From an uncultured Gammaproteobacteria bacterium (GTDB taxonomy: Bacteria > Pseudomonadota > Gammaproteobacteria > DRLM01), in contig CAVXFH010000002.1 of assembly GCA_963761035.1 (NCBI GenBank), positions 1,738,915 through 1,802,914 on the forward strand: a stretch of DNA of 64,000 bases, read 5' to 3'. A program made the position numbers and the translations under genes. The notes beneath the pieces are model-generated. The model did not search any database. It had not been told where the DNA came from and saw only the letters and a program-made list of their open reading frames with translations. Positions 14,965-20,740 of the stretch are shown piece by piece (the first letter of the stretch is position 1; the number at the start of each line of letters is the position of its first letter).

Positions 14965-15405
14965 TTATATGTCAACGGCCCGGGGTTTAACGGTGAATTC
15001 GCCGTGCATACCTAGCATGTGATGACCGTTGATGTTACAAAAATAGACATAATGTCCCGGCCCCAGGGTTACCGACATGATTTTGCTACCGCCGGGATTG
15101 ATATCTTCGGCCGCGACAATTTTGTGAAGCATTGATGAATCTTCATCGATTTTTCCGTCCGATTCGAGCGGCAATTTACTCAGTGATAACTCCGTCTTTG
15201 CGATGAAGAATTCATGGGTGAGGTCCGAAGAATCATTTTTGACGATGAATCGCACTCTGCCGGCATGGATACTGTCCGATGAGAGTTGCATCGCATAGTC
15301 GGTCATAGTGATAGCGATGGTTTGTGTGCCAGCTTCGGCGCCGGCGGGTAATCCCGCAAGACCTATGCTTACCATCAAAGCGAATTTGAAAAATCGACGA
15401 TACAT
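14965..15405 (-). CDS. cupredoxin (type-1 copper, plastocyanin/azurin-like) periplasmic protein
   Basis: Signal peptide; His...Cys-x-n-His-x-x-x-x-Met pattern (HEFF.....YVYFCNINGHHMLGMHGEF). Confidence 0.7.
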   Translation of the reverse strand: MYRRFFKFALMVSIGLAGLPAGAEAGTQTIAITMTDYAMQLSSDSIHAGRVRFIVKNDSSDLTHEFFIAKTELSLSKLPLESDGKIDEDSSMLHKIVAAEDINPGGSKIMSVTLGPGHYVYFCNINGHHMLGMHGEFTVKPRAVDI

Positions 15406-15508
15406 AGCAGTTGCTCCGCTGTGGCTCCATTTGGCATCCGAAATCGCCGCTGCGCACCTTGATAACGTTGTAAAGCGCCAGAGGGTACGTTGTAGTAAAG
15501 TAAAACAA

Positions 15509-15524
15509 AGCCAGCTTCGTGCCA
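15509..15524 (-). promoter_or_regulatory. sigma54 (-24/-12) promoter, copy 2: TGGCACG-N4-TGGCT on the minus strand
   Basis: Reverse complement CTGGCACGAAGCTGGCT, ~100 bp upstream of the cupredoxin start (15405). Confidence 0.6.
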
Positions 15525-15627
15525 GTTTTATATATGGTTGTATTTGTTAAGCTTAATTATAGAATACCCGCATTTTCCGGTCGCGTTGGATTGCGGTGCG
15601 CAAAAATTGTATGCAGGCGTTTGCGCC
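15510..15627. repeat. ~115 bp regulatory repeat, copy 2 (upstream palindrome TGGATTGCGGTGCGCAAAAATTGTATG at 15587..15613)
   Basis: Paralogous to 14784..14903. Confidence 0.8.
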
Positions 15628-17317: not shown

Positions 17318-17534
17318 TATATCGGCGTAACGGTGATGGATTGCTTATCATTTTTCCGGCTGGTGTCGTGATCATAATGCGAGGGAAGTCCTAATTTGGT
17401 GCTCATCCCGCTGCAATCGCCGGATATACGGCTGTGGCGGAATTGAGAGGCGAGATTGCCTGCTTCGGCAGCGAGCGCACGAAAAATACCAGGCTTTAAT
17501 TGAATAAGGAAGCCCAGCGGGTGGTGTTTTTTTA

Positions 17535-19370
17535 TTGCGCAAAATGTCGCATGATCATAGGCTGGAACGGATGAAACATGCAGATCGATCGCCCGTGACG
17601 ATTAAGAAGGCGCTGTTGCGCGCCTTTTTCGCGCTGGTATTGGGGGCTATCGTCCTGGTGGGGGCGCTGTCTTTTTATCAGTTTCGGCAAACGTTGCAGG
17701 AGGAGATCGCCCATAATCTGCAATTCGGCGCCGGCGCGGTGTTGCAGCGCATCGATGTATTTTTTTTCGAGCGGTTGGAAAATGTTCGGGTGTGGCGGCG
17801 CTTGGAGGTGATGCAGGATATTCGAGTCAACGACGTCGACAAGCGCCTATCACATTTCCTCTCCGACTTGCATGACGGACACGGCGCGGTGTACCAGGCT
17901 CTTTTCTGTACCGATAAGAAAGGTCGCGTCATCGCCGCCAGCGACTCCGCATGGATCGGACGAGGCAAACCGGCGGAGACAGATTGGTTCACGGTGCCGG
18001 GGGACGGCGGCACGGAGGTTGTGTTGGAATCGATGCAATCGGATAAAGGCATCGTCGTGGCGCTGCGCGCCACGATCCCCGATGCCTTCGGCACGGGCGA
18101 GCTCGGTTACCTCTATGCCTTGCTCAATTGGAATGAGGTGCTGGATTTATTGGATGATGCGGTGGCGGGCGGTGAGCGCGGCGCCTTGTTGCTCGACGAC
18201 GATGGGCGGGTGATCGCGGCTTCCCGCGGATTGCGCCAGCGCAAGAATATTTACAGTCAGCGCCTGGCGGGGTGGGTTGCCGACGGCGCCGTCGGCGAGG
18301 CGCATATCAGGACAGGGAAGGTATTGGGCTATCCCAGTCTATTGGTGGGCAGCGCCCGCTCCAGCGGTTATCAGCACTTCCAGGGTTTCGGTTGGCATCT
18401 GCTCATGGTCGAACCCACCGATGTGGCCTTCGCGCCGATCTGGCGCCTGCTGATTGCTATGGTGGCTTTATTGCTGCTGACCTTGGCGGCGGCGGGATGG
18501 ATTTCTTCGCGCTTGGCGGCGCGCATCGCACAACCCATCGTGAGCCTCACGGAGATTACCCGCCGCTACCGCAAGGGCGAGAAAATCGAGCCGGTGAGCG
18601 CGAACACGACCCTGTCTGAGGTGGGCGAACTCAATCGCGCCTTTACCGATATGATAGAGGCGCTGGAGCATTCCCGGGAACAGATCGTGCGCGCTGGAAA
18701 GCTGGCGGTGGTGGGCGAGATGGCGGCGGTTATGGCCCACGAAGTGCGTACCCCCCTGGGTATCTTGCGTTCCTCGGCGCAGTTATTGGAACGACAGCCC
18801 GATCTGGGTGAAAAAGAAAGGGAGCTGACCGGTTTTATCATCAGTGAAACGGACCGTCTCAACCGTTTGGTGACGATGCTATTGGAGTGCGCCAGTCCGC
18901 GGGCGCCTGACTTCAAACCCCATGACCTCCACGAGGTCATAGGCCATGTTCTGGATTTGCTGCTTTCCAAGGCGGAGGGTAAAGCCGTCAAACTACAACG
19001 GGAGTTTAGCGCCCAACACGCCATAATGATATGCGACCGCGAACAATTGATACAGGTGTTTCTAAATCTGGTGATCAACGCGTTACACTTTGTGCCGACG
19101 GGCGGGCGCATCGTCGTCGTCACGCGCAACGAGGGTGGATCGCTGGTCGTAAGTATCGAGGACAACGGCCCCGGTATCCCCGTCGAACTGCGGCAAAGGG
19201 TGTTCGATCCCTTCTTCACCCGGCGCGCCGGCGGCATCGGACTGGGCTTGACCGTTGTACAGCAGATTGTGCAGGCGCACCATGGCGAAATCTGGGTGAC
19301 GGAAAGTCCTTGGGGCGGCGCCAGTTTCAATATCCGCTTCGAACAACGCAACGATGGGAATGATCTTTAA
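17535..19370 (+). CDS. sensor histidine kinase with large periplasmic sensing domain
   Basis: 611 aa. TM1, ~260 aa periplasmic region, TM2, HAMP, H-box (MAHEVRTPLGIL), N/G1/G2 ATPase boxes (LVINALHF..DNGPGIP..GGIGLGL). Stop overlaps the regulator start. Confidence 0.88.
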   Translation: MRKMSHDHRLERMKHADRSPVTIKKALLRAFFALVLGAIVLVGALSFYQFRQTLQEEIAHNLQFGAGAVLQRIDVFFFERLENVRVWRRLEVMQDIRVNDVDKRLSHFLSDLHDGHGAVYQALFCTDKKGRVIAASDSAWIGRGKPAETDWFTVPGDGGTEVVLESMQSDKGIVVALRATIPDAFGTGELGYLYALLNWNEVLDLLDDAVAGGERGALLLDDDGRVIAASRGLRQRKNIYSQRLAGWVADGAVGEAHIRTGKVLGYPSLLVGSARSSGYQHFQGFGWHLLMVEPTDVAFAPIWRLLIAMVALLLLTLAAAGWISSRLAARIAQPIVSLTEITRRYRKGEKIEPVSANTTLSEVGELNRAFTDMIEALEHSREQIVRAGKLAVVGEMAAVMAHEVRTPLGILRSSAQLLERQPDLGEKERELTGFIISETDRLNRLVTMLLECASPRAPDFKPHDLHEVIGHVLDLLLSKAEGKAVKLQREFSAQHAIMICDREQLIQVFLNLVINALHFVPTGGRIVVVTRNEGGSLVVSIEDNGPGIPVELRQRVFDPFFTRRAGGIGLGLTVVQQIVQAHHGEIWVTESPWGGASFNIRFEQRNDGNDL

Positions 19371-20740
19371 TGGAAGCGCATAGAATTCTGGTCGTCGACG
19401 ATGAAGTCAAGATGCGGCGTTTGCTGGAGATGTCTCTGAAGAATATGGGGCACGAGGTGGCGCAGGCCGCGGACGGTGAGGAGGCCATTGCCTGTTTCGC
19501 GGAGGCGCCTTTCGATTTGGTCATGACCGACCTCAAGATGCCGCGCATGGACGGCATGCAACTGCTGAAAACCCTGCGCGCGCGCGGCGAAGAAGTCCCG
19601 GTGATCGTGTTGACCGCCTTCGGCTCCATCGAGACGGCGGTGGAGGCCATGAAACTGGGCGCCGCCGATTACATCATTCGGCCCTTCGAGATCGAGACCG
19701 TGGAATTGGCGGTAACCCGCGCCCTGGCCATGGCCGCGGTGCAGCGTGAGAATCGTTTCCTGCGCGATGAGGCGGCCAAGGGCTGGGGCGAGTTCATAGG
19801 CGGCAGTTCTAAGATGCGGCAACTTTATGAACTCATTCGGCAGGTAGCGCCGGCGCGCAGCAGCGTGTTGATTGTCGGCGAGACCGGCACCGGCAAGGAG
19901 TTGGTGGCGCGCGCCATCCATCAGGCATCGGGACGCGGCGGGCTGTTCGTGCCCATCAATTGCGCGGCGATTCCCGCCGATCTGCTGGAGAGCGAATTGT
20001 TCGGCCACCAAAAGGGCGCCTTTACCGGTGCGCATCGCGATCGCATGGGAAAATTCGAACTGGCCAACGGCGGCACCCTCTTTCTCGACGAGATTACCGA
20101 GATGCCGTTGGCGCTACAGGCCAAGTTGTTGCGGGTGTTGCAGGAAGGAAACGTCGAGCGTCTGGGCGCGCAGCGCGCCGTTAAGGTCGATCTGCGCATC
20201 GTGGCCGCCACCAACCGCGATCCGCAACAAGCCGTCGCGGAGGGGGCGTTGCGCCAGGATCTTTTTTTCCGCTTGAACGTGGTGCGCATTGATGTGCCCC
20301 CTCTGCGGGAGCGCCGCGAGGACATAAAATCGCTGGCGGGACATTTTCTGCATAAGTACAGCAGCGAACTGGGGCGTCCGGCGCCCGCCTTGTCGGAGGC
20401 GACAATGCACAGCCTGCTCGCCTATCCTTGGCCCGGCAATGTTCGGGAGTTGGAAAATCTTATGGAGCGCGCCGCGGTATTGTGCCGCGGCAAGACCATC
20501 GAGCCGAAACTTCTACCGCAAGACATCACGCATGCCGCCGCGGCGCCGCCGCCCGCCGTCAATACTGGCGGAATAGCAGAGTTCGAGTCGCTGATGCTGG
20601 TCGACCATGTCGAGACCTTGGAAAAACAATTGATCAGTACGGCCTTGGCACGCAGCGACGACAATAAATCCGCGGCATCGCGGTTGCTCGGTGTCAGTGA
20701 ACGCACACTTTGGTACAAGATAAAGAAATACGGTCTGTGA
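19370..20740 (+). CDS. sigma54-dependent response regulator (NtrC/ZraR-type bEBP)
   Basis: 456 aa. Receiver domain (Asp in LVMTDLKMPRMDG), AAA+ domain with Walker A GETGTGKE and the sigma54-contact GAFTGA motif, C-terminal Fis-type HTH. Confidence 0.92.
   Translation: MEAHRILVVDDEVKMRRLLEMSLKNMGHEVAQAADGEEAIACFAEAPFDLVMTDLKMPRMDGMQLLKTLRARGEEVPVIVLTAFGSIETAVEAMKLGAADYIIRPFEIETVELAVTRALAMAAVQRENRFLRDEAAKGWGEFIGGSSKMRQLYELIRQVAPARSSVLIVGETGTGKELVARAIHQASGRGGLFVPINCAAIPADLLESELFGHQKGAFTGAHRDRMGKFELANGGTLFLDEITEMPLALQAKLLRVLQEGNVERLGAQRAVKVDLRIVAATNRDPQQAVAEGALRQDLFFRLNVVRIDVPPLRERREDIKSLAGHFLHKYSSELGRPAPALSEATMHSLLAYPWPGNVRELENLMERAAVLCRGKTIEPKLLPQDITHAAAAPPPAVNTGGIAEFESLMLVDHVETLEKQLISTALARSDDNKSAASRLLGVSERTLWYKIKKYGL

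Follow-up and report, generated by a model that had tools for sequence, protein, structure and literature searches.

Introduction

When a sensor kinase and its response regulator are encoded back to back with an outer-membrane (OM) barrel, a small periplasmic protein and a blue-copper protein, which of these proteins take part in perceiving the signal and which are what the signal switches on? This question is raised by a locus of an uncultured Gammaproteobacteria bacterium, contained in a stretch of 64,000 nucleotides (positions 1,738,915 to 1,802,914 of contig CAVXFH010000002.1; hereafter, the window), in which a histidine kinase and an NtrC-family sigma-54 response regulator are divergent from genes for a porin-like barrel, a small protein with a periplasmic-binding-protein (PBP) fold and a cupredoxin. 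The first-pass annotation of this DNA regarded the three divergent genes as a periplasmic sensing and uptake set feeding the regulator, with a logic similar to that of ZraPSR. Based on the comparison of related loci, structural models and promoter patterns, we consider it probable that the porin, the small protein, the kinase and the regulator form a four-part envelope-sensing unit with its own target promoters, to which the cupredoxin would not belong. A search of the available literature found no description of such a sensing module, or of the T_hemolysin operon that is its most frequent output.

Results

Conservation of the four-gene core

All five genes of the locus are present as annotated (5/5, open reading frame list and domain scans). 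On the plus strand, the kinase gene (17535-19370) is followed by the regulator gene (19370-20740), and on the minus strand, reading away from the kinase, come the genes for the porin-like barrel (16184-17317), for a secreted protein resembling a single lobe of PstS (15676-16179; hereafter, the lobe) and for the cupredoxin (14965-15405). A scan of one genome per species yielded 258 loci with relatives, of which the best 80 were kept, and the window proteins were mapped onto them by tblastn. All of these 80 loci that carry a class-level name belong to the Gammaproteobacteria (Thiogranum-like organisms, Chromatiales, Thiohalobacterales, Rhodanobacter, Dyella, Luteibacter, Methylococcaceae and Steroidobacteraceae), and the organism of the window is not among them. 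The porin gene lies directly 5' of the lobe gene in 72 of 74 loci, and the kinase and regulator genes are divergent from the porin gene in 61 of 64, a linkage well above what chance would give, which spans several gammaproteobacterial families at 40-70% protein identity.

The genes that follow the lobe gene, on the other hand, change from one group of organisms to another. In 50 of 75 loci they form an operon encoding a T_hemolysin-family protein, an AMP-ligase, a Haem_oxygenas_2 protein, a tetratricopeptide repeat (TPR) protein and a short-chain dehydrogenase/reductase (SDR). At the same promoter position, Dyella and Rhodanobacter have genes for a glycosyltransferase of family 9 (Glyco_transf_9, GT9), a LAB_N protein, two ArnT-like PMT_2 proteins and an asparagine synthase, and the Methylococcaceae have AhpC-TSA/thioredoxin, DUF3570 and DsbD; in one further locus (L076), the position is taken by unknown proteins and a pyridine-nucleotide disulphide oxidoreductase. 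Every recognisable output acts in or on the envelope. The proposal that the porin and the small PBP-type protein belong with the kinase and regulator is therefore borne out by a synteny which stays constant while the downstream genes change.

Two variants of the pair formed by porin and lobe were also seen. The metagenome-assembled genome (MAG) BP4.bin6 carries two copies of it (L072 and L081), and in L049 and L068 (from Rhodanobacter and Oleiagrimonas MAGs) genes for GT28-type and GT4 glycosyltransferases come after the pair; the upstream sequence of L068 is not long enough to show whether a kinase and a regulator are present.

Putative target promoters and enhancer

The window contains a 122-nt direct repeat (80% identity), read on the minus strand, one copy of which (copy 1, 14781-14902) lies 5' of the T_hemolysin operon and the other (copy 2, 15507-15628) 5' of the cupredoxin gene. 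Each copy is composed of a dyad, TTGCGCAC(T/C)GCAA, an A/T-rich stretch and a sigma-54 -24/-12 element, TGGCACGAAGCTGGC, which has the GG-N10-GC spacing, occurs twice in the window and is preceded by the dyad 79 nt upstream. In copy 1 the enhancer reads TTGCGCACTGCAA (14877-14865) and the -24/-12 element lies at 14798-14784 on the minus strand, and in copy 2 the dyad reads TTGCGCACCGCAA (15603-15591) and the element lies at 15524-15510 on the same strand; the sigma-54 promoter that had been annotated for the cupredoxin is thus real as a pattern. Terminator-like matches at 15525-15511 and 14799-14785 were rejected, being the -24/-12 elements themselves, and a sigma-54-like match at 63452 was set aside, since it is probably within a coding region.

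This architecture extends well beyond the window. A sigma-54 pattern occurs 60-450 nt 3' of the lobe gene in 70 of 78 loci (background, 0.09 per kb), with an enhancer-like dyad upstream in 48 of these 70 and a spacing of 79-81 nt in 42, so that a -24 GG/-12 GC promoter with an upstream enhancer, as expected for a target of an NtrC-type protein, is found at the level of sequence pattern. Directly 5' of the -24 element an ATCAA-N4-TT motif is conserved, which may be a site for the integration host factor (IHF). When the exact enhancer-promoter pattern was searched for in 241 million metagenome records, 14 matches were obtained, all of them just 3' of a lobe gene; 13 lie ahead of T_hemolysin and the remaining one (L110) ends before the next gene. 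The regulator thus very probably drives the downstream operon through this enhancer and sigma-54 promoter, as the first-pass annotation had anticipated. Since the promoter comes after the lobe gene, the porin-lobe pair and the outputs would constitute separate transcription units.

In Dyella solisilvae (L038), a second full enhancer (GTGCAGACAATTCTTGCGCACTGCAAG), ATCAA motif and sigma-54 promoter are found downstream of the regulator gene (3774-3860, minus strand). This second promoter precedes two genes (2665-3720 and 2177-2587, minus strand) for proteins of 351 and 136 residues without a Pfam family, which may be further members of the regulon.

Cupredoxin and main output operon

The cupredoxin matches Cupredoxin_1 in Pfam (E 1.6e-8) and, in the Protein Data Bank (PDB), 6kol (8.9e-5) and auracyanin B, with which its putative ligands H64 and C123-x4-H128-x4-M133 align. 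Together with the signal-like sequence read at its N-terminus, the fold and the His/Cys/His/Met ligands are those expected for a secreted type-1 (blue) copper protein. The first-pass annotation had counted this protein as part of the perception set, an assignment that the related loci do not sustain: the gene is missing from all 80 genome loci and from all 14 further metagenome loci, it was found only in two near-identical metagenome contigs (L001 and L002), and a metagenome scan for relatives of the cupredoxin found none. Because it is placed behind a duplicate of the output promoter, it is best read from its position as a lineage-specific output gene and not as a part of the sensor.

The main output operon, also on the minus strand, begins with the gene for the T_hemolysin-family protein (13994-14731; PF12261, 1.4e-53), for which neither the single sequence nor a profile found a relative in the PDB (chance-level matches only). 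It continues with an AMP-binding, acyl-adenylate-forming ligase (12502-13992; PF00501, 6.7e-55, plus AMP-binding_C_3; syntenic in 51 loci), a haem-oxygenase-like iron-containing redox enzyme (11868-12515; Haem_oxygenas_2, PF14518, 1.2e-32, and synteny) and a secreted protein assigned to TPR families (11169-11819), whose likeness to TatT/BstC is weak (9.4e-8 for the NCBIfam BstC model, far under its cut-off, and weak TAtT matches in orthologues). The last conserved gene encodes the SDR (10275-11087; syntenic in 52 loci), in whose translation the glycine-rich motif TGAGGGIG can be read and whose orthologues match adh_short. Taken together, these genes probably specify a fatty-acyl or lipid-modifying pathway. 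A gene for a VTT/DedA-family membrane protein (9606-10235, minus strand; PF09335, 1.5e-20) follows the SDR gene co-directionally at a distance of 39 nt and may extend the operon in the source genome; the genes called after the SDR gene in L003 and L005 include no VTT/DedA family.

Histidine kinase and regulator

The kinase has two transmembrane (TM) segments around approximately 250 periplasmic residues (the first-pass annotation had given about 260), in which Pfam recognises a dCache_1 domain (PF02743; 47.7 bits, cut-off 45, residues 55-290); TM2 is followed by HAMP, HisKA (with His402) and HATPase_c. It therefore has the periplasmic double-Cache domain between two TM segments that characterises a dCache_1 sensor kinase, and several fragments of orthologues match PF02743 as well. 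Given that the orthologues are 598-599 residues long, translation probably starts at M13 (17571), which results in a protein of 599 residues. The periplasmic domain shows conserved patches in an alignment of 46 orthologues, and a homology search with it retrieved 21 proteins, mostly fragments from its own orthologous group, which therefore give no hint of the ligand; against the sequences of the PDB only chance-level matches were obtained. Among the NCBIfam models, AtoS (198.3 bits, cut-off 646, residues 370-608 of 611) and ZraS (172.2 bits, cut-off 479) match the transmitter half only. Since these named models cover only that half and stay below their equivalog cut-offs, the sensor domain would belong to no characterised sensor such as DctB, to which the first-pass annotation had suggested comparing it and with which no match was found.

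The regulator gene and the kinase stop codon share one base. Pfam identifies Response_reg (2.5e-30), Sigma54_activat (8.8e-71) and HTH_8 (3.8e-13), and the translation contains the phospho-acceptor Asp54 in the receiver domain, GAFTGA in the AAA+ domain and a C-terminal Fis-type helix-turn-helix, which is the complete set of features of the NtrC family. Its best NCBIfam model is AtoC (504.6 bits), under the cut-off of 714, and the scores for LuxO (403.8 bits, cut-off 800) and ZraR (395.4 bits, cut-off 760) are also under theirs.

The single-lobe protein

The lobe protein has 167 residues including the signal peptide, or 159 if translation starts at M9 (16155), and it is the 159-residue version that the sequence collection carries (an exact look-up of the 167-residue frame found no match). 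No Pfam or NCBIfam family matches it, and the single sequence finds only chance-level matches in the PDB. Its relationship is apparent at the level of the profile and of the fold: a profile of 39 members of the family aligns to residues 90-200 of Escherichia coli PstS only, which correspond to one (middle) lobe, and an AlphaFold2 (AF2) model (pLDDT 81.7) consists of a single alpha/beta lobe, for which the best PDB matches in Foldseek are PstS proteins (E 5e-5; TM approximately 0.5 for the query and 0.35 for the target). The phosphate-binding residues of E. coli PstS, which we take to be Arg135, Asp137 and Ser139-Gly140-Thr141, are not maintained: the Ser-Gly-Thr loop is opposite a gap, Asp137 is opposite a Leu, and R78, which aligns with Arg135, is variable across the lobe family alignment. 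No ABC permease or ATPase genes of the PstCAB type were found among the neighbours in the window or in the related loci. A PstS-type protein would have two lobes, the phosphate residues and partner ABC genes, and the lobe protein has none of the three. Because of this, neither phosphate binding nor the uptake function of the first-pass annotation has support; of the small PBP-fold protein that it described, the PstS-family fold stands, but only one lobe is present and the phosphate motif is deleted. Within the close lobe subfamily, a pair of cysteines (Cys133 and Cys159) is invariant, and the conserved face of the lobe comprises R77, Y95-W96-N97, P106-P107 and S112.

The porin

At the sequence level, the porin is close to the limit of recognition, with a Porin_O_P match of 21.8 bits (cut-off 20.9) over 79 residues only and chance-level matches to the PDB; some of its homologues match PF07396 or PF13609. 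These homologues are 362 residues long, and the start of the porin, which has a signal peptide, is likely to be M16 (17272), giving the same length. The AF2 model, built with 43 homologues (pLDDT 80, pTM 0.77), has about 16 long strands, and its Foldseek matches are OmpM1, OmpC, OmpU, Omp32 and OprP (E 4e-12 to 1e-10, with OprP at rank 18), so that the barrel is indeed porin-like, as annotated, with the 16-strand general porins as its structural relatives (E of about 1e-11).

Upstream of the porin gene there is a doubtful sigma-54-like element, TGGTATTTTTCGTGC (17477-17491, minus strand), which is shared by the window and 3 of 68 related kinase-porin intergenic regions (L008, L013 and L030) and which has lost its GG in L003 and L005. 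Given that the element is not conserved beyond the closest relatives, we rejected the idea that the porin-lobe operon has a sigma-54 promoter, and for the same reason this operon is probably outside the control of the regulator. The intergenic region itself (17318-17534) contains a block, GGGCTTCCTTATT...GCCTG(G/T)TATTTT(T/C)CG, conserved with L003, L005 and L007; it reads as sigma-54-like in the window, but its GG is not conserved.

Distant relatives of the lobe

A profile search of 1.84 billion representatives returned 5,596 lobe-related clusters (at 50% identity), of which 1,717 have E ≤ 1e-10; nearly all of the best-scoring 150 clusters listed are 130-200 residues long. Two distant lobes have usable contigs. 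One of them (P0364, in L095) comes after a porin homologue (hhalign 100%, E 1e-52), is divergent from a dCache kinase and a sigma-54 regulator, and is followed by an MtrC-like multihaem cytochrome. The other (P0400) is located between a porin homologue (hhalign 99.5%, E 1.4e-22) and a HAMP kinase, in an operon which begins with an OmpR-type regulator and a multihaem cytochrome; the triad of porin, lobe and kinase thus also occurs with another class of regulator. Additionally, a protein of 744 residues (P0353, L088 452-2686) combines a BlaR1-type M56 peptidase signal transducer with two C-terminal copies of the lobe, a fusion which, in the manner of a Rosetta stone, hints at a sensory function of the lobe.

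Near the porin-lobe-kinase set of L095 (6744-8426, minus strand), two ferritin-like diiron proteins are encoded beside a CRP-family regulator. One of them resembles Ald_deCOase; for the other, the matches to RNR-small and Haem_oxygenas_2 are weak. Together they echo the diiron enzyme in the output operon of the window.

Other features of the window

Downstream of the regulator gene there is a gene for a CybB-type cytochrome b561 (20910-21488, plus strand; Ni_hydr_CYTB, 5e-22), whose relation to the module is uncertain. Apart from L013 and L017, which are the two nearest relatives whose flank is long enough, no related locus keeps it there, and a sigma-54 promoter for it was dropped, as no sigma-54 element was seen 5' of the gene. 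The 10-mer GACGATTAAT stands at both ends of the intergenic region between the regulator and cytochrome b561 genes (near 20740 and 20870). In the window as a whole, G+C is about 0.51 at 30001-34000 and 62001-64000 and about 0.60 in the rest, and these two blocks could be acquired DNA.

Discussion

A proposed four-part unit for envelope sensing

The swapping of cassettes behind a constant set of genes, the recurrence of this set in distant lineages and the BlaR1-type fusion lead us to favour a sensory role of the porin and lobe over a role in any single output. In the mechanism that we propose, these two proteins would be co-transcribed from their own promoter, divergently from the kinase operon, as accessory (co-sensor) parts. 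The kinase would perceive a periplasmic cue via its dCache domain of about 250 residues, and the lobe, either by itself or while docked onto the porin or the dCache domain, would modulate the kinase upon this cue; that the lobe and the porin contact or modulate the kinase is suggested by analogy with YfiB/YfiR, RcsF and OM proteins, CpxP and AioX. The kinase would then phosphorylate the NtrC-type regulator, which in its phosphorylated form would bind the TGCA(G/T)AC...TTGCGCACTGCAA enhancer some 80 nt 5' of the sigma-54 promoter after the lobe gene, and activate whichever cassette follows that promoter. In the source genome, where the promoter is duplicated, two units would be switched on, namely the blue-copper protein and the T_hemolysin operon.

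Several observations weigh against this interpretation. Three loci (L049, L050 and L071) have no adjacent kinase and regulator; L050 also lacks the porin, and L049 and L071 keep the porin-lobe pair beside housekeeping genes. In L049, the pair comes after SMC and ZipA and before glycosyltransferases and an ABC exporter, and there is no sigma-54 promoter after the lobe gene. The porin-lobe operon is always co-directional with and ahead of the outputs, which would also fit a structural or transport role, and the outputs are heterogeneous, so that no single cue is obvious. The pairing of the enhancer with the regulator draws on position, conservation and a partial likeness to AtoC sites, and the contact of the lobe and porin with the kinase on analogy. 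Finally, the distant lobes lack the Cys133/Cys159 pair, and for this reason a general thiol-switch role of these cysteines is unlikely and was rejected.

As for the nature of the cue, the outputs all have envelope functions and several of them are periplasmic electron carriers, from which one might guess at a redox-active or metal cue in the periplasm, or at envelope stress, entering or sensed at the porin. The redox flavour of the cupredoxin, of thioredoxin/DsbD, of the multihaem cytochromes and of the neighbouring cytochrome b561 weakly suggests the same, and we still regard this guess as rather doubtful. With more conviction, and yet only tentatively, we propose that a porin, a single PstS lobe and a membrane kinase may make up a widespread and undescribed trans-envelope triad. 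In such a triad, the half-binding-protein would couple passage or events at the porin to the periplasmic domain of the kinase, and various classes of regulator would be combined with interchangeable cassettes (lipid/LPS, thiol-redox, cupredoxin, multihaem cytochromes).

Alternative explanations

The porin and lobe could instead serve the transport or assembly of whatever the cassette produces (for example, in lipid or glycolipid export or delivery to the OM), with the kinase and regulator controlling the whole set. The position of the pair, always directly 5' of the output genes and in the same direction, would be natural in this case, as would the loci where it precedes GT28/GT4 glycosyltransferases (L049 and L068, the former also with an ABC exporter and no adjacent kinase) and the presence, in the main output operon, of a secreted TPR protein resembling TatT/BstC along with acyl-activating enzymes. 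The porin-lobe-kinase set, however, remains constant while the cassette goes from lipid-type enzymes to thioredoxin/DsbD and to multihaem cytochromes, products so varied that they cannot share one carrier. Moreover, the promoter after the lobe gene separates the pair from the outputs, the lobe and kinase genes of L090 abut, and a pair of lobes is fused to a BlaR1-type signal transducer. The context of L049 and the constant co-orientation with the outputs keep this explanation alive, and we consider it unlikely. The same cassette variety bears on a loop similar to quorum sensing, in which a fatty-acyl signal made by T_hemolysin and the AMP-ligase would leave the cell, re-enter via the porin and be presented by the lobe to the dCache kinase, which would activate the synthase operon. 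A biosynthetic-looking operon would lie under the direct control of an adjacent sensor in 50 of 75 loci, dCache domains typically bind small molecules, and the regulator has some likeness to LuxO (403.8 bits, below the cut-off of 800). About one third of the loci, though, have no T_hemolysin operon and keep the four-gene sensor with its promoter; no synthase activity of T_hemolysin has been demonstrated, the search for its structural relatives was negative, and nothing points to a diffusible product, all of which makes such a loop quite improbable.

Names assigned by JGI, 'Phosphate-selective porin O and P' and 'ABC-type phosphate transport system substrate-binding protein', would indicate a set for scavenging or sensing phosphate or another oxyanion, with an OprO/P-type porin and a PstS-type protein feeding a Pho-like regulator, and both the weak Porin_O_P match and the PstS proteins as nearest structures of the lobe go in that direction. 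This is nevertheless very improbable, as only one of the two PstS lobes is there, the Ser-Gly-Thr loop is deleted, the position of Arg135 is variable and Asp137 is replaced, and the neighbourhood has neither PstCAB-type genes nor outputs linked to phosphate. That these genes are simply neighbours without a shared function, as the three loci where the linkage breaks might indicate, is hardly credible in view of the 61 of 64 and 72 of 74 loci, over several families at 40-70% identity, where it holds, and of the recurrence of the porin-lobe-kinase triad in distant lineages.

Comparison with known systems

The envelope-sensing unit proposed here has its closest counterparts, in terms of gene logic, among two-component systems with accessory proteins. 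ZraPSR of E. coli and Salmonella responds to envelope and zinc stress and combines an NtrC-type sigma-54 regulator and a membrane kinase, which senses in the periplasm, with a periplasmic accessory protein encoded divergently, a layout that is also present in this locus; CpxP is another such accessory protein. The analogy with ZraP made by the first-pass annotation turns out to be loose: a porin and a PstS lobe serve as the putative accessory proteins, no ZraP/LTXXQ match was found among the three secreted proteins (Pfam, E ≤ 0.01), no sigma-54 promoter is conserved ahead of the accessory operon, the outputs form cassettes of their own, and the ZraS (172.2 against 479) and ZraR (395.4 against 760) scores do not reach the equivalog level. 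In the RcsF-OMP-IgaA-RcsCDB system, RcsF in complex with porin-type barrels reports the state of the envelope to an inner-membrane phosphorelay, and in QseE-QseG-QseF (GlrK/GlrR) an OM protein, QseG, is encoded with the kinase and the sigma-54 regulator QseF/GlrR. RcsF and QseG are lipoproteins unrelated to PstS and no homology was seen, so that the likeness is one of logic alone.

In the arsenite-responsive AioX-AioS-AioR system (and in ArxX/ArrX), a PBP-fold sensor, a kinase and a sigma-54 regulator act on an adjacent operon for a periplasmic redox enzyme (PMC5908839, PMC7565993). The combination of a PBP-type protein, a kinase and a sigma-54 regulator is shared, and the comparison is made by gene logic alone: AioX is a complete two-lobe clamp from another PBP subfamily and no AioX structure is among the Foldseek matches listed for the lobe, whereas the present module has one PstS-type lobe, an OM porin as partner and no arsenite oxidase genes. 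YfiB-YfiR-YfiN of Pseudomonas aeruginosa is reported to link an OM protein, via a small soluble protein of the periplasm, to a signalling enzyme of the inner membrane whose sensor domain is periplasmic, and the binding partner of the small protein decides the output (PMC4655355, PMC4887326). This three-tier arrangement of an envelope relay is also that of our module, but YfiB is an OmpA-like lipoprotein and not a porin, the output of YfiN is that of a diguanylate cyclase and not of a kinase with a sigma-54 regulator, and no Pfam match to the YfiR family (DUF4154) was found in the window proteins.

Of the named relatives, AtoC is the best one for the regulator and AtoS for the transmitter half of the kinase. 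The published AtoC sites, GCTATGCAGAAAATTGCGCA (PMC3118216), have TGCAG...TTGCGCA in common with the enhancer described here, where the spacing between the half-motifs is 3 nt longer. The scores remain below the cut-offs (504.6 against 714 and 198.3 against 646), the dCache domain has no counterpart in the AtoS model match, and there are no atoDAEB genes in the locus. PstS and OprO/OprP, lastly, are the nearest structural relatives of the lobe (for one lobe) and of the barrel, respectively, and differ from them in that the present proteins comprise half a binding protein that has lost the phosphate motif, no ABC transporter and a marginal Porin_O_P match.

Significance

Accessory-dependent two-component systems, such as Cpx, Zra, Rcs, Yfi and Aio, are central to the way Gram-negative bacteria monitor their envelope and, to our knowledge, each of them uses a different accessory fold. 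The pair of a porin and a single PstS lobe would add a new variant to this form of signalling. The lobe family is large, has no Pfam family and is conserved over sulfur oxidisers, methanotrophs and soil Rhodanobacteraceae. Modularity is apparent in the fact that the promoter linked to the porin-lobe pair is re-used ahead of very different envelope cassettes. Dyella, Luteibacter and Rhodanobacter are culturable carriers of the module. If confirmed, the unit would represent a new sensor architecture, would give a function to many proteins mis-annotated as 'phosphate ABC substrate-binding' and 'phosphate-selective porin', and would offer an entry point to the uncharacterised T_hemolysin/AMP-ligase/diiron-oxidase operon as well as a sigma-54 promoter cassette that is compact and inducible.

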